Source: a bacterium (GTDB lineage: Bacteria > Sysuimicrobiota > Sysuimicrobiia > Sysuimicrobiales > Kaftiobacteriaceae). Taken from it: a stretch of 22,713 nt of DNA. The notes under the pieces were generated by a model. The model was given only the letters and a program-made list of their open reading frames with translations. It had not been told where the DNA came from and made no database searches. How positions within the stretch are numbered: the stretch's first letter is position 1; each line of letters begins with the position of its first letter. Location of the stretch: NCBI GenBank assembly GCA_044868695.1, contig JBIOWP010000071.1, positions 1 through 22,713 of the forward strand. Direction: 5' to 3'. The position numbers and the translations under genes are program-made. Shown here piece after piece: positions 8,393-20,180 of this stretch.

Positions 8393-8407
8393 CGAACGGA
8401 CGGAAAC

Positions 8408-8431
8408 GGGAACGCGGGAGCGCGGGAATGC
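8408..8431 (+). repeat. Octamer tandem repeat x3
   Basis: gggaacgc-gggagcgc-gggaatgc in the gap between dppC and the hypothetical gene. Confidence 0.65.
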
Positions 8432-8451: not shown

Positions 8452-9198
8452 ATGCGCATCTCCTTCCACCTCGTTATGTTCATCGCGGCGACCGCTGTCG
8501 CAAGCCTTGTGGCGTGGACGTGGCCGCCGGCCGGGCCGCCGTCCGTGGGGGACGTCCAGCGGCTCATGCCCCGCGGCGGCCAGCTGCGCGGGCTCGTCCG
8601 GTTGGAAGCGACGGGGGCCCCACCGCTGGAGACCGCGGCCGTGGCCGTGGTGCCGCGTTTCCCCGGAGCCGTGGACACGGCGTACTACGGGGTGGTCGTA
8701 GCGTACGATCCGTGGCGCCGGCGGGCGGCGAGGGTGTACGCCGAGCCGCTGCCCGGTCCGATTCCTCTTTCCCCTGACGCCGCACGGATCGGGGGGCGCC
8801 GCGAGGCAGCGATCTTCCACGCGATGCGCCCCGACGGAACCCGGGTGCACGAGGTCGTCGCATTCACTCAGGGCCGCTGGCGGCGCCTCAATGCCCCGGC
8901 ATCGGAGCATCTCCTCGCTGCCGTACCGGATGCGCCGCCCGGGATCACCTGGCGGTTCCGCGCGCGGAATGGCATGATCTCGGCGCCGTCCCGGGTGCTG
9001 CGCGTCCAGGTACGCCAACCCGTGCGCATCGTCGCCAGCGGGGGTGGCCCAACGCCCATCATCGTCCCCGATGCCAGGCTGGATATCATCGAGCCGGGGT
9101 ACCGGGCGCGCGACCCCGGGACGTACACAATCCGCATTCTCCTGCCGTTCAACGCCGATCAAGGATATACGCTGACGCTGGTGGTGGAGTCTCCGTAG
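8452..9198 (+). CDS. Hypothetical secreted or membrane-anchored protein, with a possible cupredoxin-like C-terminal domain
   Basis: Co-oriented ORF that fills the gap between dppC and gatC. It has an N-terminal hydrophobic segment (FHLVMFIAATAVASLVAW) and a beta-rich C-terminus ending 'PGTYTIRI...TLTLVVE'. Confidence 0.7.
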   Translation: MRISFHLVMFIAATAVASLVAWTWPPAGPPSVGDVQRLMPRGGQLRGLVRLEATGAPPLETAAVAVVPRFPGAVDTAYYGVVVAYDPWRRRAARVYAEPLPGPIPLSPDAARIGGRREAAIFHAMRPDGTRVHEVVAFTQGRWRRLNAPASEHLLAAVPDAPPGITWRFRARNGMISAPSRVLRVQVRQPVRIVASGGGPTPIIVPDARLDIIEPGYRARDPGTYTIRILLPFNADQGYTLTLVVESP

Positions 9199-9205
9199 CG
9201 TCCTA

Positions 9206-9214
9206 TGCTACGAT
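9206..9214 (+). promoter_or_regulatory. Candidate extended -10 promoter for gatCAB
   Basis: TGcTACGAT matches TGnTAnnnT, 17 nt before the gatC ATG. No consensus -35 and no clear SD. Confidence 0.35.
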
Positions 9215-9231
9215 GAAACCGGTGACCCGCG

Positions 9232-9525
9232 ATGCCCATCGATCCCTCCATCGTTGACCATGTCGCACGGCTGGCCCGGCTGGAGCTCTCTGCGGAGGAG
9301 CGGCAGCGCTATGCGCAGCAGCTGGCCAGCATCCTCGAGTACTGCGCCACGCTCAACCAGCTGGACACCGAGCAGGTCGAGCCGACGTCGCACGTGCTGG
9401 CGCTGACCAACGTCTTCCGAGACGATGTGCCTGGGGCGCCGCTTGCCCGCGACACCGTGCTGGACGCGGCGCCGGACCACGCGGACGGATTTTTTAAGGT
9501 GCCCCCGATCATCGAGACGGAGTAG
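9232..9525 (+). CDS. gatC: Asp-tRNA(Asn)/Glu-tRNA(Gln) amidotransferase subunit C
   Basis: 97 aa; 'VDHVARLARLEL', 'LDTEQVEPTSH', 'NVFRDD', 'FFKVPPII'. Confidence 0.96.
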   Translation: MPIDPSIVDHVARLARLELSAEERQRYAQQLASILEYCATLNQLDTEQVEPTSHVLALTNVFRDDVPGAPLARDTVLDAAPDHADGFFKVPPIIETE

Positions 9526-9528
9526 ACC

Positions 9529-11103
<1,575 letters not shown>

Positions 11104-11111
11104 CGACACTC

Positions 11112-11188
11112 CTGTCACTGCGAGGCGCGGAGCGCCGAAGCAATCTCCTCCGACCCCGGGGATTGCTTCGCTGCGCTCGCAATGACAG
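11112..11188. repeat. REP/RPE-like nested palindromic element
   Basis: Outer arms ctgtcactgcgag / ctcgcaatgacag (12/13 complementary), inner arms cgaagcaatc / gattgcttcg (perfect 10 bp), and a mini-hairpin ggcgc-gga-gcgcc. It resembles the widespread GTCATTGCGAG...GCAATC...GATTGC...CTCGCAATGAC dispersed repeats. Confidence 0.8.
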
Positions 11189-11200
11189 AAACTGCAGAGC

Positions 11201-11228
11201 GAGTCACGAATCACGAGTCACGAATCAC
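11201..11228 (+). repeat. Heptamer tandem repeat (GAGTCAC-GAATCAC)x2
   Basis: gagtcac gaatcac gagtcac gaatcac, ending 2 nt before the gatB ATG. Confidence 0.8.
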
Positions 11229-11230
11229 GC

Positions 11231-12700
11231 ATGAGTACACCTGCGATCGCGACAGCGTACGAAGTCGTCATTGGGTTAGAGATCCACGCTCAGCTTCTGA
11301 CCGCGTCCAAGATGTTCTGCGCATGCCCGGTGACGTTTGGGGCACCGCCGAATACCCTGGTCTGCCCCGTGTGCCTCGGACTGCCGGGCTCGCTGCCGGT
11401 CCTGAACCGGCGGGCGGTTGACCTGGGATTGCGCACCGCGGCGGCGCTGGAGTGCACCGTGCATCCCGTCAGCCAGTTCCACCGGAAGAACTACTACTAT
11501 CCGGATCTGCCGAAGAACTATCAGATCACCCAATACCGGTACAAAGTCCATCCCCCGCTGGCCACCGACGGAGGGCTCGAGATTCAGACGGCCGCCGGCC
11601 GCCGGCCCATCGGCATCCGTCGGGTCCACCTCGAAGAGGACACGGGCCGGCTCGTCCACGTCGAAGGCGGCGGATCGATCCGCCACAGCCTGATCGATTT
11701 CAACCGGAGCGGGGTGCCCTTGATGGAAGTGGTGACCGAGCCGGAGCTGCGCTCGCCGTCCGAAGCGCGCGCGTTTCTGGGGCGGCTGCGGGCGCTGCTG
11801 CAGGCCATCGAGGTCAGCAGCGGGCGGATGGAAGAGGGCAGCCTGCGGTGCGATGCCAACGTGTCGCTGCGCCCGCCCGGAGGGGAGCTGGGCATCCGCA
11901 CCGAGGTCAAGAACATGAACTCCCTGCGGTCGGTGGAACGGGCACTCGCGCATGAGGTCCAGCGGCAGGCGGCGCTGCTGGCGCGCGGGCAGGCCGTGGA
12001 GCAGGAAACCCGCCACTGGGATGAGCGCCGCGGCGTGACCTTCTCGTCACGCACCAAAGAGGAAGCGCAGGATTATCGCTACTTTCCCGAACCCGACCTG
12101 GTGCCGATCGCGGTCACCGCGCAGTGGGTGGCCCAGGTGCGCGCCGCGCTCCCGGAACTGCCGGATGCGAAGCGGCGCCGGTATGTGGAGACCTATGGGC
12201 TGTCGGAGCATGACGCCGACCTCCTGACCTCTTCTGAGGCGATGGCCCGATTCTTTCAGGAGACGGTGGGCCTCTATACTCAGCCGAAAGTTGTCTGCAA
12301 CTGGTTGACCGGCGACATCGCCGCCTACCTGAACGCAGAGGGGAAGGAGATCGACGACCTGCCGGTGACCCCGTCCCACCTCGCCGAGCTCCTGCAGCTG
12401 ATCGACCGGGGCGCCATCAGCGGCCGTACGGCGAAGGAGATCGTGGGCGAGATGCTGGCGCGCGGCGCGCGGCCGGAGGCTCTCGTGGCCGAGCGCGGGC
12501 TGGGACAGATCAGCGACGAGACTGCACTGGTCTCCGTTGTCGAGGCAGTGCTGGCCGAGCATGCCGGTCCGGCAGCGGAGTATCGCGCCGGCAAACCGCA
12601 GGCGCTGACATTTCTGGTCGGCCAGGTGATGAAAAAGACCAGGGGCCGGGCGAACCCCGAACTGGCAAACCGGCTGCTGCGGGAGAAACTCGGGTCATGA
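11231..12700 (+). CDS. gatB: Asp-tRNA(Asn)/Glu-tRNA(Gln) amidotransferase subunit B
   Basis: '[10 protein letters not shown]', '[17 protein letters not shown]', 'RVHLEED', 'LRCDANVS', 'EVKNMNS', '[10 protein letters not shown]', and a C-terminal YqeY-like '[16 protein letters not shown]'. Confidence 0.97.
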
Positions 12701-14160
12701 CGCAGACGCGAGGGAAGTCGAAGCGCGGGACCAGGGACCTGGGATCAGGGACCAGAAAGAGGAAGCCTCCATCGGGCCGGTCCCCGGTCCCCGGTCCCGG
12801 GTCCCGTTCTCCGTCTGTGCGCGCCGGTCAGAAGCTCACCCTGTCGTTCCGCGAGTTGAACCTCGACGGCGCGGGGGTTGCCGCGGCCGGTTCCCTGAGG
12901 ATCGCAGTCCCGTTCGCCCTGCCCGGGGAAGAGGCGCTGGTCGAAATCACCCGCGGCGGGCGGCGGCCCGAGGGAAAGATTCTGACCCTTGTCCGCAAGG
13001 CGCCCCAGACGGCGGCGCCCCGTTGCCGGCACTTCGGTGTGTGCGGCGGCTGCCAGTGGCAGCACGTCGGGTACGACGCGCAGCTCGAACACAAGACCCG
13101 GCTCACCCGCGCGCATTTGGATCCGGTGCTGCGCGGAACCGGAGCGGCGGTGCGTGGTGCCGTGGGCGCGTCGCCGTGGGAGTACCGCAACCGGGTGCAG
13201 GCCGCGTTTGCCGTGCGGCAAGAGAAGGTGGTCGTCGGATACTACACCCTGGGGGACGACCTGCGGGTCATTAATGTGCAGGAGTGCCCGATTCAACATG
13301 GCGACAATGTCCGCCTCCTGCACGCGGCGCGGGACGTCGTCGCCGGTCTGGGTTGGCCGATCTACGACCGGTCGACCGGCGCCGGCCTCCTCCGCGGGGT
13401 GATCGGGCAGGTGGGGATGCAGAGCGGCGAAGCGATGCTGGTGCTCTGCGCCAGCCGTGAAGTTCCCGACCGGATGGCTCTGGTGCGCGAAGTCCGGAAC
13501 CGGGTGCTCAACCTCACCGCCCTTCTGCTCTCCGTGCAGCCGGCCCACACGCCCGAGCTGCTGGGATCGGTGCGGCTACTCTGGGGGCGGCCCTACATTG
13601 ATGATGAGATCGCTGGGCTGCGTCTCCGGCTGTACCCGGCCGCGGCGGTGCCTCCGAATCCGCGCGCGCTTCCCATGTGGCTGGAGGCGATCGTGCGGGG
13701 CGCGGCGGGCGACGGCGCAGAGACGGTCGCTGATACTGCCTGCGAAGAAGGGCTCGTCCCGCTGGCGCTGGCCCCACACGCCCACCGGGTGATCGGGATC
13801 GCCCCGGATCGCGAAGCCATGCACCGCGCGTGGGAGAACGCGCGCCTAAACAGCATCACCAACTGCGTGTTCTACACCCGCGCGCCGGCAGGCGTGCTGG
13901 CGAAACTCCACGGGAGGGGCGAGCGCCTGGATGCGGTGGTCACCTCCGCGCGGGGCGGCGTGACGGCGCCGGCCGTCTTCACGGAGGCGCGCGAGGCAGG
14001 CGCGCGCCGGCTGGTCTGCGCCGGCCACTCGCTGACGCTGCTGGCGCGCGACGTCGCCGCGGCGCGGGACGCCGGGTTCAAGCCGGTCGACGTCCAACCT
14101 GTCGACCTGCTGCCGCAGACGAGCCGTGTGCACTGCGTGGTGACCATGGTACGCGAATAG
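12697..14160 (+). CDS. RlmD/RumA-like protein (TRAM + Fe-S + methyltransferase fold) with degenerate catalytic motifs
   Basis: TRAM-like 'GQKLTL...GAGVA...VPFALPGEE', Fe-S cysteines '[14 protein letters not shown]...ECPI', 'WEYRNR', 'GLLR', 'AWENARLN', 'LARD', 'QPVDLLPQT'. ATGA overlap with the gatB stop. Confidence 0.85.
12726..12806. repeat. Inverted pair of heptamer tandem arrays, (NGGGACC)x4 and (GGTCCCS)x4
   Basis: 12726-12753 cgggacc-agggacc-tgggatc-agggacc; 12779-12806 ggtcccc-ggtcccc-ggtcccg-ggtcccg. 24 of 28 positions are Watson-Crick complementary. Confidence 0.85.
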
Positions 14161-14168
14161 CGAAAACC

Positions 14169-14199
14169 GTCTACAATGTCTACCAGGTCCACAAGGTCC
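14169..14199 (+). repeat. Degenerate 9-mer tandem repeat, copy 2
   Basis: gtctacaat-gtctaccag-gtccacaag-gtcc, just before the gabT SD. Confidence 0.65.
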
Positions 14200-14219
14200 G
14201 ATTCAAGGAGGAACATCCG

Positions 14220-15548
14220 TTGAGCAAAGCGACGACCCCCCGCTACACGCTCCCGGGTCCACGATCGAAGGCCCTGCTCACCGAGAAAGAGCAGTTTGTC
14301 GCCAACGCGATCGGCATCCACCTGCCGGCATTCGTGCAGCGCGCCGAAGGGGCACTGCTGACCGACGTCGACGGCCACACGTTCATCGATCTCTCCGGAG
14401 GCGTGGGCTGCCTGAACGTTGGGCACTCGCATCCCAAAGTCGTCCAGGCTATCGTCGACCAGACGCGGCGGTTCACCCACACCGATTTCAGCGTGGCGCC
14501 GTACGAGCCGTACGTCCGGCTGGCCCGCCGGTTGTGCGAGCTGGCGCCGGGCCCGCGCCCGAAGAAGGTGCTCCTGCTGAACTCCGGCACGGAGGCGGTG
14601 GAAAATGCGGTAAAGATCGCCCGGGCCGTGACCGGCCGCCCGGGGCTGATCGCGTTCCAGGGCGCGTTCCACGGGCGGACCTACATGAGCCTGTCGCTCA
14701 CGAGCAAAGTCGAACCGTACAAGAAGAACTTCGGTCCCTTCATGCCGGAGATCTACCGGGTGCCGTTTCCTGATCCGTACCGCAGCCCGGATCCCGATCC
14801 AACGCGCGGGGTCCTGCGCCATTTCGACGAACTGTTCGCGACGCACGTGCAGGCCGACCGGATCGCGGCCATCGTCGTTGAGCCGGTGCTGGGCGAGGGC
14901 GGGTTCGTGGTGCCGCCGCCCGACTTCTTCAAGGAGCTGCGGGCGCTAGCCGACCGCCACGGTATCCTGCTGGTGGTCGATGAGATTCAAACCGGCATCG
15001 GCCGAACCGGGCGCATGTTTGCCATCGAACATTTCGGCGTCGAGCCGGACCTGATGACGGTGGCGAAATCGATCGCGGTCGGGCTGCCCATCTCCGCAGT
15101 CGTTGCCGTCCGAGACATCATCGACGCGCTGCCCGAGAGCTCGCTGGGCGGCACGTATGTCGGCAACCCGGTGGCCTGCGCCGCGGCGCTCGCCGTTCTC
15201 GACGTCATGGAGGAGGAGCGGCTGACCAGCCGCGCCGCAGCGCTGGGAGAGCGGATGCTGACCCGGTTCCGCCGCCTGCAGGCGCGGTCCTCGCTGGTGG
15301 GGGACGTGCGCGGGTTGGGCGCCATGGTCGCGATCGAGCTGGTGCGGGACCGGACGACCAAGGAGCCGGCCGCGCGGGAGACGGCGGAGATCATCCGCCG
15401 CGCAATGGGGCGGGGAGTGCTCGTGCTGCGCGCGGGCATGTACAGCAACGTCATCCGCATCCTGACGCCGCTCATCATCTCCGATGCGCAGCTCGACCAG
15501 GCGCTCGACGTCCTTGATGAGTGCGTCCTGGAGGTGACGGCGGCCTGA
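14220..15548 (+). CDS. gabT: Class III PLP aminotransferase, 4-aminobutyrate--2-oxoglutarate transaminase (GabT)-like
   Basis: TTG start at 14220 with SD AAGGAGG 14205-14211. 'DVDG..FIDLSGGVGCLNVGHSHP', 'NSGTEAVENAVKIAR', 'AFHGRT', 'EPVLGEGGF', 'DEIQTGIGRTG', PLP lysine in 'TVAKS', 'LGGTYVGNP'. Confidence 0.88.
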   Translation: MSKATTPRYTLPGPRSKALLTEKEQFVANAIGIHLPAFVQRAEGALLTDVDGHTFIDLSGGVGCLNVGHSHPKVVQAIVDQTRRFTHTDFSVAPYEPYVRLARRLCELAPGPRPKKVLLLNSGTEAVENAVKIARAVTGRPGLIAFQGAFHGRTYMSLSLTSKVEPYKKNFGPFMPEIYRVPFPDPYRSPDPDPTRGVLRHFDELFATHVQADRIAAIVVEPVLGEGGFVVPPPDFFKELRALADRHGILLVVDEIQTGIGRTGRMFAIEHFGVEPDLMTVAKSIAVGLPISAVVAVRDIIDALPESSLGGTYVGNPVACAAALAVLDVMEEERLTSRAAALGERMLTRFRRLQARSSLVGDVRGLGAMVAIELVRDRTTKEPAARETAEIIRRAMGRGVLVLRAGMYSNVIRILTPLIISDAQLDQALDVLDECVLEVTAA

Positions 15549-18500
15549 TGCCGGATCCGTTCGTCCACCTGCATCTCCACACCGAATACAGCCTGCTGGA
15601 CGGTCACAGCCGCATCCCCGCGTTGATGGCGCGGGCGAAGTCCCTGGGCATGCCGGCCATCGCCGTCACCGACCACGGGGCGATGTACGGGGTGATCGAC
15701 TTCTACCAGAAGGCGACCGAGGCCGGGATCAAACCAATCATCGGGGTGGAGGCCTATGTGGCGCCGCGTGCCCTGGGCGACCGCGACCCCAGGCTCGATG
15801 CCAACGCGTCTCACCTCGTGCTGCTGGCGACGAATCTCGAGGGCTACCGCAACCTGATCAAGCTCACCACGATCGCACACCTGGACGGCTTCTACTACAA
15901 GCCGCGCATTGACAAAGAGGTCCTGGCCTCGCACAGCGCCGGTCTCGTTGCGCTGTCCGGGTGCCTGAAGGGCGAGGTCACCCAGGCGATCCTGCGGGGG
16001 GACCTGCCGGCGGCGCGCGCGGCCGCCGGGCAGTACCGGGACATCTTCGGTGCGGGGAACTTCTACCTCGAAGTCCAATCCCACGGGTTGCCCGAGCAGC
16101 GGCAGAACATCACCGGGATGATCGAGCTCTCCCGCGGCATGGGGCTGCCGCTGGTCGCCACCAACGACGTGCACTACGTCCAGCGGGAGGACGCGGACGC
16201 GCAGGACACGCTCATGTGCATTCAGATGAACGTGAACCTCGACGCCACCGACAAGCCGCGCATGGGCCAGACGCCGGAGTTCTACTTGAAATCGGCCGAC
16301 GAGATGGCGCGCGCATTCAGCGATCTGCCGGAGGCGCTGGGGACCACCCTCGACGTGGCCGAGCGCGCCGATCTGGCGCTGGAGCTCGGCGCCGTCAAAC
16401 TGCCTCACTTCCCGGTCCCGGCCGGCGAGACGCCGGAGTCCTACCTCCGCGCCCTGTGCGACGCGGGCCTCCGCGCCATCTACGGCCGCGTGCCGGTGGA
16501 GGCTCAGGAACGCCTCTCTTATGAGCTGTCGGTGATCGAGCGCATGGGGTACGCGCCGTACTTTCTCATCGTGGCGGACTTCGTGCAGTTCGCCAAACGC
16601 AGCGGCATTCTCACCACCGTTCGGGGCTCCGCGGCCGGCAGCCTGGTGCTCTACGCGCTGGGCGTCACCGACGTCGATCCCATTCAGTACCGCCTGCCGT
16701 TCGAGCGATTCCTCAACCCGCAGCGATACACGATGCCCGACATCGACGTCGACTTCATGGACAGCCGGCGCGATGAGGTCATCCGCTACGTGATGGACAA
16801 ATACGGCACCGACCGTGTCGCGCAAATCATCACGTTCGGGACCATGGGTGCGCGCCAGGCGGTCCGGGACGTGGGACGGGTAATGGGCCTGTCCTACACG
16901 GACGTGGACCGCATCGCCAAGCTCATCCCCTTCAACGCGGGGCTGGAAGACGCGGTCCGCAGCGAGCCGGAGCTGCAGCGCGCGGCCGAGGAGAACGCGC
17001 AGATCCACCGGCTGCTCGAGCTGGCCCGGAAGCTGGAAGGGGTCGCGCGCCACGCCAGCACCCACGCCGCGGGCATCATCATCTCCCGCGATACGCTGAC
17101 CGAGCACGTGCCGCTGCAGAAGGCCACCAAGAGCGAGACGCAGGTCCCGCCGCGCCCGGCGGGGGGTGAATCCCAGACCATGGTCATGACGCAGTACGAC
17201 ATGACTGCGGTCGAAAAGATCGGCTTGCTGAAGATGGACTTCCTGGGGTTGGCGAACCTGACGATCCTCGACACGGCGATGCAGATCATCCAGAAGACGC
17301 GCGGAGAAGCCGTCAACCTGGCGCGCATCCCGCTGGACGACCGGAAGACATATGACCTGCTGGCCGCCGGCGAAACGGTCGGCATCTTCCAGCTCGAGGG
17401 TGCCGGGATGACGCGCTACCTCAAGGAGCTCCGGCCGAGCAACATCCAAGACATCATGGCCATGGTGGCGCTGTTCCGGCCGGGACCCATGGCCAATATC
17501 CCCACCTACATCCGGCGGAAGCACGGCCACGAGCCGATCACCTCCCTGCATCCGGCGATGGAGGCGGTGCTGCGGGAGACCTACGGGGTGATGGTCTATC
17601 AGGAGGACGTGATGGCCGTCGCCCAGGCGGTGGCGGGATTCTCACCCGCGGAGGCGGACGTCCTGCGGTACGCCATCGGCAAGAAGATCCGCGACAAACT
17701 GCAGCAGCAGCGGGCGAAGTTCATCGCCGGATGTGTCGATCGGAGCGTGCCGGTGCATGTGGCCGAGCAGGTCTTTGAACAGTTCGAACCGTTCGCCCGC
17801 TACGGGTTCAACCGGGCGCACGCCGCCTGCTACGGGCTGATCGCCTACTACACCGCCTACCTGAAGGCCAACTATCCCGCCGAGTACATGGCGGCGGTGT
17901 TGAGCAGTGAGGCCGGGAATACGGACAAGGTCGCGGCGGCGGTCGGCGAGTCGGTGCGGATCGGGATCCGGGTGCTTCCGCCGGACGTCAACGAGTCGTC
18001 CGAAAACTTTACCGTCGCCGGCGACGCCATCCGGTTCGGGCTGGCGGCGGTCAAGAACGTCGGTCTGGGCGCGGTGGAGGCGATCCTGCAGGCCCGGACG
18101 GCCGGCGGCCCGTACACGTCGCTGACCGATCTGGTGGAGCGGGTGGATCCGCGCGCGGTCAACAAGCGTGTGCTCGAAAGCCTGATCAAGGCCGGCGCGC
18201 TGGATTCCCTGGGCGCTCCCCGCGCGCTGATGCTGCAGACGCTGGACGACGCGATGGAGGGAGCCCAGCGGGTCCTGCGCGAGCGCGAGTCGGGGCAGAC
18301 CGGACTGTTTGATCTCAGCGGCGCGACCCCTCCGCCGGAGCCGGTTGAGGCCGGGCTTGCCGTGGAAGAGTTCTCCAAAGAAGAACTGCTCGCGATGGAA
18401 AAGGAGATGCTGGGGCTGTACATCTCCGACCATCCCCTGCGGCACGTGCAGGACACCCTGGCCGCCCGCATCAACGCCCCGCTGCATCAGTTGATGGACG

Positions 18501-19088: not shown

Positions 19089-20180
19089 ATGAGGGTTGCC
19101 GACCCCCGACCCCCGGCCCCCGGCACTTACGATGTCGTGATCGCGGGCGCCAGCTTCGCCGGGCTGGCCGCGGCGCAGCGGCTCTCCGGGAAGCGTGTCG
19201 TTCTCGTGGACCGCGCGCCGCTGGGGGAGGGGCTCACGTCCGCCTGCGCCGCACCGGTCTCGATCGTGCGCGCCATGGGGGCGGAGGACTCCATCCAGCA
19301 GGTCCACGATCGGCTGGTCCTGCACACCCCCGCGGCCGAGACCGTCTGGCCGCTCGGCGACCCGTTCTGCACCTTTGACTACCGGCGGTTTTGCGCGCTG
19401 GCACACGAGCGGGCCGGTGCAGAGTTCTATCAGGCGTCGGTGCGGGGGCGGGACGGCGCGGTCGTGCACACCACCGCGGGGAACGTGACCGGAGCCGTGC
19501 TGGTGGATGCCACCGGATGGCGCGCCGCGCTCGCCGGGTCCGCGACGCCGCCGGTGGGCCGCCGCTGGATGGCCTTCGGGATTGAGTCTGAGGTCCCTGG
19601 GGCGTTCCCCTCCGGGCTGCACTTCTATTTCCTCCCGGAAGTCCGGGACGGATACGCCTGGGCCTTCCCCTGCGGCGGCGGTGTGCGGTTCGGCGTCCTT
19701 AGCTACCGCGGCCGCACCAAGCTGTCACCGGCGCTGGAGACCTTCATGGCCCGCTTCGGACGGCGCCCCGACACCGTGCACGGCGGGTTCCTCGCCTCTG
19801 GGCTCAGATCTCCTGTGGTGGATGGTGTGTTGGTGACCGGGGATGCCTCCGGGCATTGTCTCCCGCTGACCGGGGAGGGCATCCGCACCGCGGTCCTGGG
19901 CGGCTTCCGCTGCGGGGAGATCGTGCGCCAGGTACTCGACGGCGGCCTCAGCCGCGCTCAGGGGGCCGCCGCCTATCGCGCCTTCACGGAATCCTCGCGG
20001 CGGTCTTTTCGTGCGCTGGTCTGGGGAAATCTGCTGCTGCTGGTCCTGCCGTTGCGGGCCACCGGCGTCCTGGCACGGTGGCTCGCCCGGCCGCGGGCGC
20101 TGCGGTGGTTCCTGCGATCCTATCTGAGGATTTTTGCCTGGGACCCGCTGCAGCCTCCGGAGAACGCGCCTGCTAGGTGA
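19089..20180 (+). CDS. FAD-dependent oxidoreductase, geranylgeranyl reductase/FixC family
   Basis: ATG 19089. Rossmann 'YDVVIAGASFAGLAAA', 'VDATG', 'GYAWAFP' (YxWxFP), 'GDASGHCLPLTGEGI'. Confidence 0.82.
   Translation: MRVADPRPPAPGTYDVVIAGASFAGLAAAQRLSGKRVVLVDRAPLGEGLTSACAAPVSIVRAMGAEDSIQQVHDRLVLHTPAAETVWPLGDPFCTFDYRRFCALAHERAGAEFYQASVRGRDGAVVHTTAGNVTGAVLVDATGWRAALAGSATPPVGRRWMAFGIESEVPGAFPSGLHFYFLPEVRDGYAWAFPCGGGVRFGVLSYRGRTKLSPALETFMARFGRRPDTVHGGFLASGLRSPVVDGVLVTGDASGHCLPLTGEGIRTAVLGGFRCGEIVRQVLDGGLSRAQGAAAYRAFTESSRRSFRALVWGNLLLLVLPLRATGVLARWLARPRALRWFLRSYLRIFAWDPLQPPENAPAR
19101..19121 (+). repeat. Heptamer tandem repeat (GRCCCCC)x3
   Basis: gaccccc-gaccccc-ggccccc at the 5' end of the oxidoreductase gene; same unit as 1265-1292. 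Confidence 0.7.

Follow-up and report, generated by a model that had tools for sequence, protein, structure and literature searches.

The window analysed in this study is a stretch of 22,713 nucleotides (contig JBIOWP010000071.1 of assembly GCA_044868695.1, positions 1 to 22,713, forward strand) from a bacterium of the Kaftiobacteriaceae within the phylum Sysuimicrobiota. It carries the genes gatC (9232..9525; TIGR00135, 94.8 bits), gatA (9643..11103; TIGR00132, 613.4 bits) and gatB (11231..12700; NF004012, 650.8 bits), which are directly followed by an rlmD-like gene on the same (plus) strand and, downstream of it, by a gabT-like (4-aminobutyrate aminotransferase-like) gene and dnaE. The maximal open reading frame (ORF) of the rlmD-like gene spans 12697..14160 (+) and encodes 487 amino acids (aa). 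A first-pass annotation had described it as a full-length and uninterrupted frame, which we confirm, and had proposed that its product keeps the iron-sulfur (Fe-S) and RNA-binding parts of an RlmD-type 5-methyluridine (m5U) methyltransferase while the catalytic Cys and Glu are both replaced by His. Our analysis places the gene in a clade of degenerate RlmD-like copies, in which the residues for binding S-adenosylmethionine (SAM) and for catalysis have been replaced although the whole protein is under purifying selection, and suggests that the encoded protein probably binds RNA without methylating it.

The relationship of the protein to the m5U methyltransferases is clear at the level of sequence profile and fold. 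It matches the RlmD model TIGR00479 with 203.6 bits over residues 54-478 (curated cut-off 183.55), and its best solved relatives by sequence are RlmCD of Streptococcus pneumoniae (spRlmCD; E 3.7e-30) and RumA of Escherichia coli (E 1.4e-25). A Pfam scan of the protein returned no family even at E 1, and PF05958 matched only a paralogue on another contig of the same genome; the empty scan is a sign of motif loss only. An AlphaFold2 (AF2) model based on 83 family members reached a predicted local distance difference test (pLDDT) score of 91.5 and a predicted TM score of 0.88. In Foldseek comparisons its TM score, normalised to the target, was 0.92-0.93 against spRlmCD (root-mean-square deviation 2.1-2.2 A, 22% identity), 0.88-0.90 against RumA and 0.80 against TrmA (3bt7). 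Given this confident model and its superposition on RlmCD and RumA, the three-domain fold consisting of TRAM, central Fe-S and class-I methyltransferase domains is predicted to be intact. The TRAM (OB-fold) domain corresponds to residues 44-105 (12826..13011, +), aligns with the TRAM domains of spRlmCD and RumA and is modelled with five beta strands between residues 46 and 100 at pLDDT 95-97. It is followed by the central domain (residues 106-318; 13012..13650, +), which harbours R164, Q168, Y182 and Q200 as well as four cysteines that are predicted from sequence comparison to ligate a [4Fe-4S] cluster, namely C110 (13024-13026), C116 (13042-13044), C119 (13051-13053) and C197 (13285-13287). 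The C-terminal part (residues 319-487; 13651..14157, +) is a degenerate class-I methyltransferase-fold domain, which retains its fold in the model and has no match to PF05958. Hence, the earlier statements that the TRAM domain and all four cluster cysteines are kept proved correct. In the family alignment the four cysteines are invariant in 83/83 members, as are R164 and Q200, and altogether 35 columns do not vary across the 83 members despite identities down to 41%.

The changes in the methyltransferase domain were read by alignment to P0121, the canonical paralogue encoded in the same genome, and each motif substitution listed in the first-pass annotation holds in this comparison. In the uracil-recognition motif X, TFFQTN became AAVPPN, with the Phe replaced by A317 and the Gln by P319 (13651-13653); the latter proline occurs in 90% of the degenerate family versus 100% Gln in canonical enzymes. 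The SAM-binding motifs are affected as well. The canonical DLYCGVGTF loop of motif I is replaced, reading DTACEEG in the window protein with E350 in place of a Gly, GVE of motif II is changed to GIA with the Glu becoming A369, the Gly-Asp region of motif III corresponds to R395/A396, and DPPR of motif IV is TSAR, with T416 instead of the Asp. Finally, YVSCNP of motif VI reads CAGHSL and HVE of motif VIII reads RVH, so that the nucleophile Cys (C389 in RumA, C324 in TrmA) is H444 and the general-base Glu (E424 in RumA, E358 in TrmA) is H479; the positions that had been assigned to the two histidine codons, 14026-14028 and 14131-14133, are exact. In mutational studies (PMC1904294, PMC6235398), mutation of the equivalent residues of TrmA, RumA and RlmCD abolishes or strongly lowers activity. 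Since SAM motifs I-IV, the uracil-recognition residues Phe, Gln and Asp, the nucleophile and the general base are all replaced, it is very unlikely, judged from sequence, that the protein is an m5U methyltransferase, as had been suspected before.

This loss is a property of the family rather than of a single protein. Of 121 sequences, six with fewer than 380 aa were set aside; the canonical FxQ, SAM-loop and GVE motifs were absent from all of the remaining 115 aligned homologues. The C-terminal motifs are covered by 112 of them, and none of these 112 has the nucleophile Cys or the base Glu; likewise, all 38 gatB-linked copies covering motifs VI and VIII have neither residue. In a column-by-column comparison of 83 degenerate members with a set of 152 canonical enzymes, from which representatives outside the range of 400-530 aa had been removed, positions conserved to at least 85% in the canonical group were kept by the degenerate family in 4/6 cases in the TRAM domain, 17/22 in the central domain and 19/38 in the methyltransferase domain. 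The 19 lost columns of the latter domain lie mostly in motifs X, I, II, IV, VI and VIII, i.e. at positions for SAM binding or catalysis, and by this alignment-based measure the loss centres on the active site. The replacing residues are less uniform. Position 444 is His only in the closest genera, Ser, Thr, Ala or Gly in further genera belonging to that family, and Arg (also Gln) in the families labelled f2, f4 and f6, while H479, with 93% in the 83-member alignment, is common in f1 and f2 but gives way to Thr, Ser, Ala, Asn, Met, Gln or Tyr in other clade members. Three degenerate copies of genus g21 that are not linked to gatB keep the motif VIII Glu, still without the Cys. In family f4, the loci L038-L046, L048, L052, L055 and L056 retain a glycine-rich motif I loop (E-x-x-AGIGAY) with the Cys, the Phe and Gln and DPPR already gone. 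From these f4 members it seems that the SAM site eroded stepwise, and together the f4 glycine loop and the g21 Glu hint at the order of active-site erosion.

The same genome encodes an intact counterpart, for which the first-pass annotation had advised to look. P0121 (395 aa; G000:C159:11545-12699, minus strand, equal to L001:1468-2652, minus strand) lies on contig C159, scores 349.5 bits (81.8 bits with PF05958), and holds every canonical motif (TFFQTN, DLYCGVGTF, GVE, DPPRAG, YVSCNPATLATD and DLFPHTHHVEC). As a side aspect, P0121 has no TRAM domain, and the same applies to the canonical copies of genomes G042-G044, in which the matches begin at query residues 97-106; in most other genomes of the phylum the canonical copy has kept it. 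Hence, the only TRAM domain of this protein family in the genome resides on the catalytically dead copy. In Bacillus subtilis one enzyme, RlmCD, makes both m5U747 and m5U1939 (PMC3241648).

The degenerate clade falls in the uncultured phylum Candidatus Sysuimicrobiota (CSP1-3), most lineages of which have kept the gene. A word-indexed protein search found 471 matches at E <=1e-10, of which the best 120 share 83-42% identity with the query and are either unnamed or named RlmD of metagenome-assembled genomes designated 'Armatimonadota bacterium' or 'bacterium'; a precomputed PF05958 match exists for none of these best 120. An exhaustive search among representative sequences gave 14,831 relatives at E <=0.001, and approximately nine of the 50%-identity clusters belong to the degenerate clade, i.e. 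the top seven matches, one fragment and P0212. Two sequences outside this clade, P0139 (YLSPNP) and P0264 (YISSNP), also have no nucleophile Cys and keep the motif VIII Glu; they look like independent Cys losses in other lineages. Within the phylum of the window, 92 of 94 genomes have a match at E <=1e-20, most of them with two copies. The motifs of 70 loci were read, which yielded 44 degenerate copies distributed over families f1, f2, f4 and f6 and 26 canonical ones, and all eight fetched genomes of family f5 contain the canonical copy only. A quick LG+G4 tree with 81 rows, to which the degenerate copies contributed 28 of 44, the canonical copies of the phylum 19, Bacillota eight and the representatives 26, united the degenerate copies and P0212 in one clade (Shimodaira-Hasegawa-like approximate likelihood ratio test, SH-aLRT, 99), and the canonical copies of the phylum formed a separate clade, also with an SH-aLRT of 99. 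This separation fits a single ancient loss.

The degenerate gene is also maintained as a protein-coding gene. Its ratio of nonsynonymous to synonymous substitutions (dN/dS) according to Nei-Gojobori was 0.115-0.259 in 15 pairs, while gatB gave 0.093-0.236 in the same pairs; a ratio below 1 had been set as a check on the earlier proposal. Calculated by domain, TRAM had ratios of 0.09-0.35, the central domain of 0.13-0.25 and the methyltransferase fold of 0.11-0.37, values similar to the 0.15-0.42 that the canonical paralogue gave for these genome pairs. All three domains including the dead methyltransferase are thus under purifying selection. The reading frame is intact in every complete degenerate locus examined, an independent soil-metagenome contig spanning 12600-14200 differs at three positions without any indel, and the variant sites found across four sequencing runs are synonymous third positions in 5/5 cases. 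Random decay does not explain such a change, because it is ancient, common to the whole clade and accompanied by purifying selection, and the view that the loss was targeted has therefore been substantiated.

The start of the gene required revision. The ATG of the maximal ORF does overlap the gatB stop codon TGA, as had been noted, however, the first 40 codons could not be confirmed as a biological feature. Codons 10-38 coincide with a palindromic element resembling repetitive extragenic palindromic (REP) sequences in the spacer between gatB and the rlmD-like gene (12725..12808, no strand assigned), which is composed of four GGGACCN units (12727-12753), a loop and four NGGTCCC units (12779-12805). 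The GC contents at the three codon positions are 0.53/0.78/0.75 in codons 1-40 and 0.77/0.51/0.85 in codons 41-487, and the coding GC3 pattern sets in at GTG 12817, which is the sole in-frame start codon downstream of the hairpin and ahead of the TRAM homology. Moreover, the loci L008 and L009 differ in the N-terminal extension by 23, 23 and 20 substitutions at the three codon positions, residues 1-40 are disordered in the AF2 model, and canonical copies begin 4-6 residues ahead of the equivalent of residue 44. The spacer between gatB and the TRAM-coding region varies from 26 to 193 nt in the relatives, and the reading frames are offset by 0, 1 or 2 without a conserved relation (locus L011, in which the gatB match ends before residue 470, was skipped). 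Since codons 1-40 represent a repeat hairpin without coding signature, the overlap is doubtful and most likely an artefact of ORF extension through a stop-free repeat, and the translational coupling to gatB that had been read from it is probably not real. The gene likely starts at GTG 12817, giving a coding sequence of 12817..14160 (+) for a protein of 447 aa. The median N-terminal extension is 32 aa with a charge of +7 in degenerate copies and 10 aa with a charge of +2 in canonical ones (ORFs >520 aa were dropped). A basic N-terminal RNA-binding tail was considered as well and rejected, the stretch being the repeat hairpin. A scan for promoters and terminators of the region 9000-16000 found none on the plus strand.

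The REP-like element is part of a larger population. In the window it forms an inverted repeat with a period of 7 in Tandem Repeats Finder, and the corresponding RNA hairpin has a minimum free energy (MFE) of -79.5 kcal/mol (z -4.04). The heptamer arm pattern occurs 173 times in the genome (93+80) versus 41 times (23+18) in a reversed control. Complete elements, defined by a strict regular expression (three to four GGGACCN, loop, three to four NGGTCCC), number 19, and all 19 are situated at gene boundaries with none inside a gene; further sites in this genome (G000) include C1:181-258, C29:27208-27280, C68:4287-4387, C72:52997-53110 and four positions on C107, besides others. Because the elements have no stop codons, several downstream open frames run through them. 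The read depth of the metagenome contig rises from 12.8 to 76 across 12708-12815. An Rfam search of 10900-14400 detected no family; the sole matches, to hairpins of miRNA precursors at 12718-12818, stayed below the threshold. In the relatives, the spacer between gatB and the rlmD-like gene holds other, lineage-specific hairpins of heptamer or octamer units, such as GGGACTN/CAGTCCC in L009, GTGACTC in L022 and GCGGGAAC in L014 and L016, which suggests that the repeat unit turns over fast while the palindromic architecture stays conserved. Other spacers of the window contain repeats, too. The spacer between gatA and gatB has a different long hairpin (11108-11190; MFE -54.3 kcal/mol, z -3.0) and a 7-nt tandem array (11200-11229; CGAATCA/CGAGTCA x4.3) ending 1 nt ahead of the gatB ATG, and another array (14169-14198; GTCTACAAG x3.3) begins 9 nt past the stop codon of the degenerate gene. 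Intergenic arrays were also found at 1208-1293 (CGGGGTCGGGAGC x2.2 opposite CCGACCC x4.4), 8407-8428 (CGGGAACG x2.8) and 19099-19122 (CCGACCC x3.4). Beyond this locus, stop-free repeat hairpins in genomes of high GC content can mimic N-terminal extensions and overlaps between genes.

What could be the function of such a protein? The retention of TRAM domain, four cysteines and overall fold together with the loss of SAM-binding and catalytic residues makes RNA binding without methylation likely, and we regard it as the probable answer that the protein is a non-catalytic RNA-binding protein of the RlmD/RlmCD fold, the predicted target of which is 23S rRNA or some other structured RNA. To examine the RNA interface, contacts described in structural work on RlmCD (PMC6235398) were mapped through a HMMER alignment. 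Backbone and loop contacts are kept, namely R127 as R164, Q131 as Q168, F145 as Y182, Q162 as Q200, R384 as R419 and H441 as R477, while the uracil-pocket residues are replaced. In the same work, Q162 (Q200 here) reads G748, and RNA binding persists in the pocket mutants Q283A and D381A (PMC6235398). Moreover, the degenerate family has newly fixed arginines at R100, R174, R298, R372 and R395.

The rRNA m5U marks are probably the work of the canonical paralogue, as they are of RlmCD in B. subtilis, and the degenerate protein probably descends from an RlmCD-type enzyme encoded close to gatB, whose task the second paralogue had come to perform. The gatB-linked copy would then have been kept for binding alone, for example as rRNA-folding factor, large-subunit assembly factor or RNA chaperone, and the [4Fe-4S] cluster would hold its central domain together. 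The gene is probably co-transcribed with gatCAB and translated from GTG 12817, in which case the REP-like spacer hairpin would set its level relative to gatCAB. Several observations weigh against this picture. The gene is not indispensable in the phylum, given its absence from the eight genomes of family f5. The RlmCD residues N247 and N249, which contact bases, have given way to H284 and P286, hence the protein may bind an RNA other than the ancestral target. In the 83-member alignment, the former-pocket residues P319, P320, P322, S445, R395, Y393 and H479 are fixed at >=90%; these new residues could signify a new ligand or chemistry and not mere filling, and the former pocket may be a re-shaped ligand site. 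Furthermore, start codon and co-transcription are themselves what we infer from the locus.

The neighbourhood of gatB had raised the idea of a special link to tRNA transamidation, in which a dead fold that binds the T-arm or rRNA would serve GatCAB as an accessory, by holding tRNA(Asn) or tRNA(Gln) or by docking on GatB. The adjacency, for which a conservation check had been proposed, is indeed conserved. Of the 44 degenerate loci, 40, which come from four families and have spacers of 26-193 nt, carry gatB immediately upstream in the same orientation, and conversely each of the 40 copies linked to gatB is a degenerate one; moreover, the fold relatives TrmA and PabTrmU54 bind the tRNA T-arm. 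However, among 76 loci from other phyla found in a genome scan, 12 have gatB within <=2.5 kb upstream (Selenomonadales, Veillonellaceae and several Bacillaceae), and in these Bacillota the RlmCD-type gene possesses all catalytic motifs, with one ORF between gatB and the gene. Four degenerate copies (in genomes G069, G060, G057 and G058) have no gatB within 2 kb. Family f5 retains gatCAB without the degenerate gene, its gatB being directly followed by a gabT-like gene (4/5) or dnaE (1/5), which is the synteny of the window minus the rlmD-like gene. The catalytic RlmCD genes near gatB in Bacillota and the f5 synteny make the linkage look inherited, which suggests that it came from a catalytic ancestor and is not newly functional. 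As, in addition, the ATGA overlap is probably no real start, the special link is not supported, and we consider a role as GatCAB accessory improbable.

An equally low chance is given to a rewired enzyme, i.e. a former pocket with new chemistry or a new cofactor, based on His or another nucleophile, that still modifies RNA or some other substrate. The methyltransferase fold is as constrained as the other domains, the residues that are fixed around the old pocket form a coherent set, and motifs VI and VIII of the closest genera bring together C441, H444, H479 and C480. However, the SAM motifs are all lost (E350, A369, R395/A396, T416), and two prolines stand for the uracil-binding Gln and its neighbour. 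The position of the nucleophile varies freely between His, Ser, Thr, Ala, Gly, Arg and Gln, and position 479 can be Thr, Ser, Ala, Asn, Met, Gln, Tyr or Glu as well. The two histidines, for which a conservation check had been advised, are thus not invariant in the family. This variability and the apparent stepwise erosion of the SAM site speak against a His-based catalytic site that is both new and conserved, and the new His/Cys-based active site that had been offered as one option is not supported. A decaying relic, meaning a redundant paralogue that drifts towards a functionless pseudogene, would be compatible with the missing catalytic residues, the presence of a functional paralogue and the one family of the phylum without the gene. 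Yet the frame is intact in the complete loci, dN/dS is 0.12-0.26 in the 15 pairs, all five variants are synonymous, 35 columns are invariant, and the AF2 model is confident; the relic is already contradicted by the selection data and extremely improbable. A more specific form of the RNA-binding explanation would be an Fe-S/redox checkpoint, in which RNA or a ribosomal precursor is bound only with an intact cluster, tying ribosome biogenesis or translation to Fe-S or oxygen status. The invariance of the cysteines in 83/83 members and in every degenerate copy examined, with the catalytic site gone, and the retention of canonical columns, which is highest in the central domain (17/22), speak for it. 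However, these four cysteines are also found in the canonical paralogues, so that their retention may be purely structural, and no Fe-S assembly or stress genes are near the locus; we regard the checkpoint as rather unlikely. Collectively, we infer that the RNA-binding or Fe-S-sensing role suggested in the first-pass annotation is still the best reading.

Among the known systems, RlmCD of S. pneumoniae and B. subtilis (YefA; 5xj1, 5zq0; m5U747 and m5U1939) has the same TRAM/central/methyltransferase architecture and is the best structural match, and RlmCD-type genes in Bacillota are also found near and downstream of gatB. In contrast, its residues F281, Q283, D381, C408 and E443 correspond to A317, P319, T416, H444 and H479 in the degenerate protein, the SAM motifs of which are lost, and Fe-S cysteines, of which the degenerate protein keeps all four, are missing from the aligned segment of spRlmCD. 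With E. coli RumA/RlmD (1uwv, 2bh2; [4Fe-4S], m5U1939) it shares the four-cysteine motif, the TRAM domain and the TIGR00479 score above cut-off. However, equivalents of F263, Q265, D363, C389, E424 and the SAM loop of RumA are absent, hence the name 'RlmD', given in the style of PGAP, is a functional misannotation. TrmA, from the same COG2265 superfamily, is reported to have a tRNA chaperone (RNA-folding) function besides methylation (PMC7641329); unlike the degenerate protein, it is catalytically active and has neither TRAM domain nor Fe-S cluster.

Non-catalytic relatives of RNA-modifying enzymes are known from mitochondria. METTL17/Rsm22, an Fe-S protein with methyltransferase fold that helps to assemble the small subunit of the mitoribosome, binds rRNA during assembly, and its Fe-S ligands outlast the SAM motif (PMC11046306). 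It belongs, however, to an unrelated methyltransferase-fold lineage of eukaryotic and organellar occurrence with another cluster position, and ribosome binding of the degenerate protein would be an analogy. Likewise, a study on the mitoribosome of Trypanosoma brucei (PMC7957421) describes MRM and RPUSD4 as proteins that have kept their fold and play a structural role with the cofactor site blocked or disrupted. These are SPOUT and pseudouridine-synthase folds seen by cryo-electron microscopy, whereas the degenerate protein belongs to COG2265 and has a predicted structure. The Fe-S checkpoint would be a bacterial counterpart of METTL17/Rsm22. In its sharpest version, a bacterial METTL17 counterpart, retained by most families of the phylum for this reason, would use the [4Fe-4S] cluster to gate binding of a 23S rRNA hairpin, with the H35 loop suggested by Q200, and would render large-subunit assembly Fe-S-dependent, which we consider quite unlikely. 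If such a METTL17-like reading were true, large-subunit assembly would hinge on iron-sulfur status.

With its retained fold, lost catalytic and cofactor residues, purifying selection and membership in a single clade, the protein family fits, as far as can be judged from sequences, what is expected of pseudoenzymes. Pseudo-methyltransferases are already known, and it is the clade-wide bacterial variant with Fe-S cysteines that is new; in full-text searches limited to an open-access library, none of the papers listed describes a catalytically dead RlmD/RumA paralogue in its title or at the start of its abstract. The clade represents a clean bacterial conversion of an RNA-modification enzyme to a non-catalytic protein, with the active paralogue retained in the same genome, while deactivated factors of such kind are documented mainly from organellar ribosome assembly. 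To our knowledge, the purpose of the RumA-type Fe-S cluster has been an open question since the RumA structure, and a bacterial example with simple domain structure would be an accessible model for its role. Furthermore, inferences about the m5U1939 and m5U747 pathways that are drawn in this phylum from the name 'RlmD' would be wrong.

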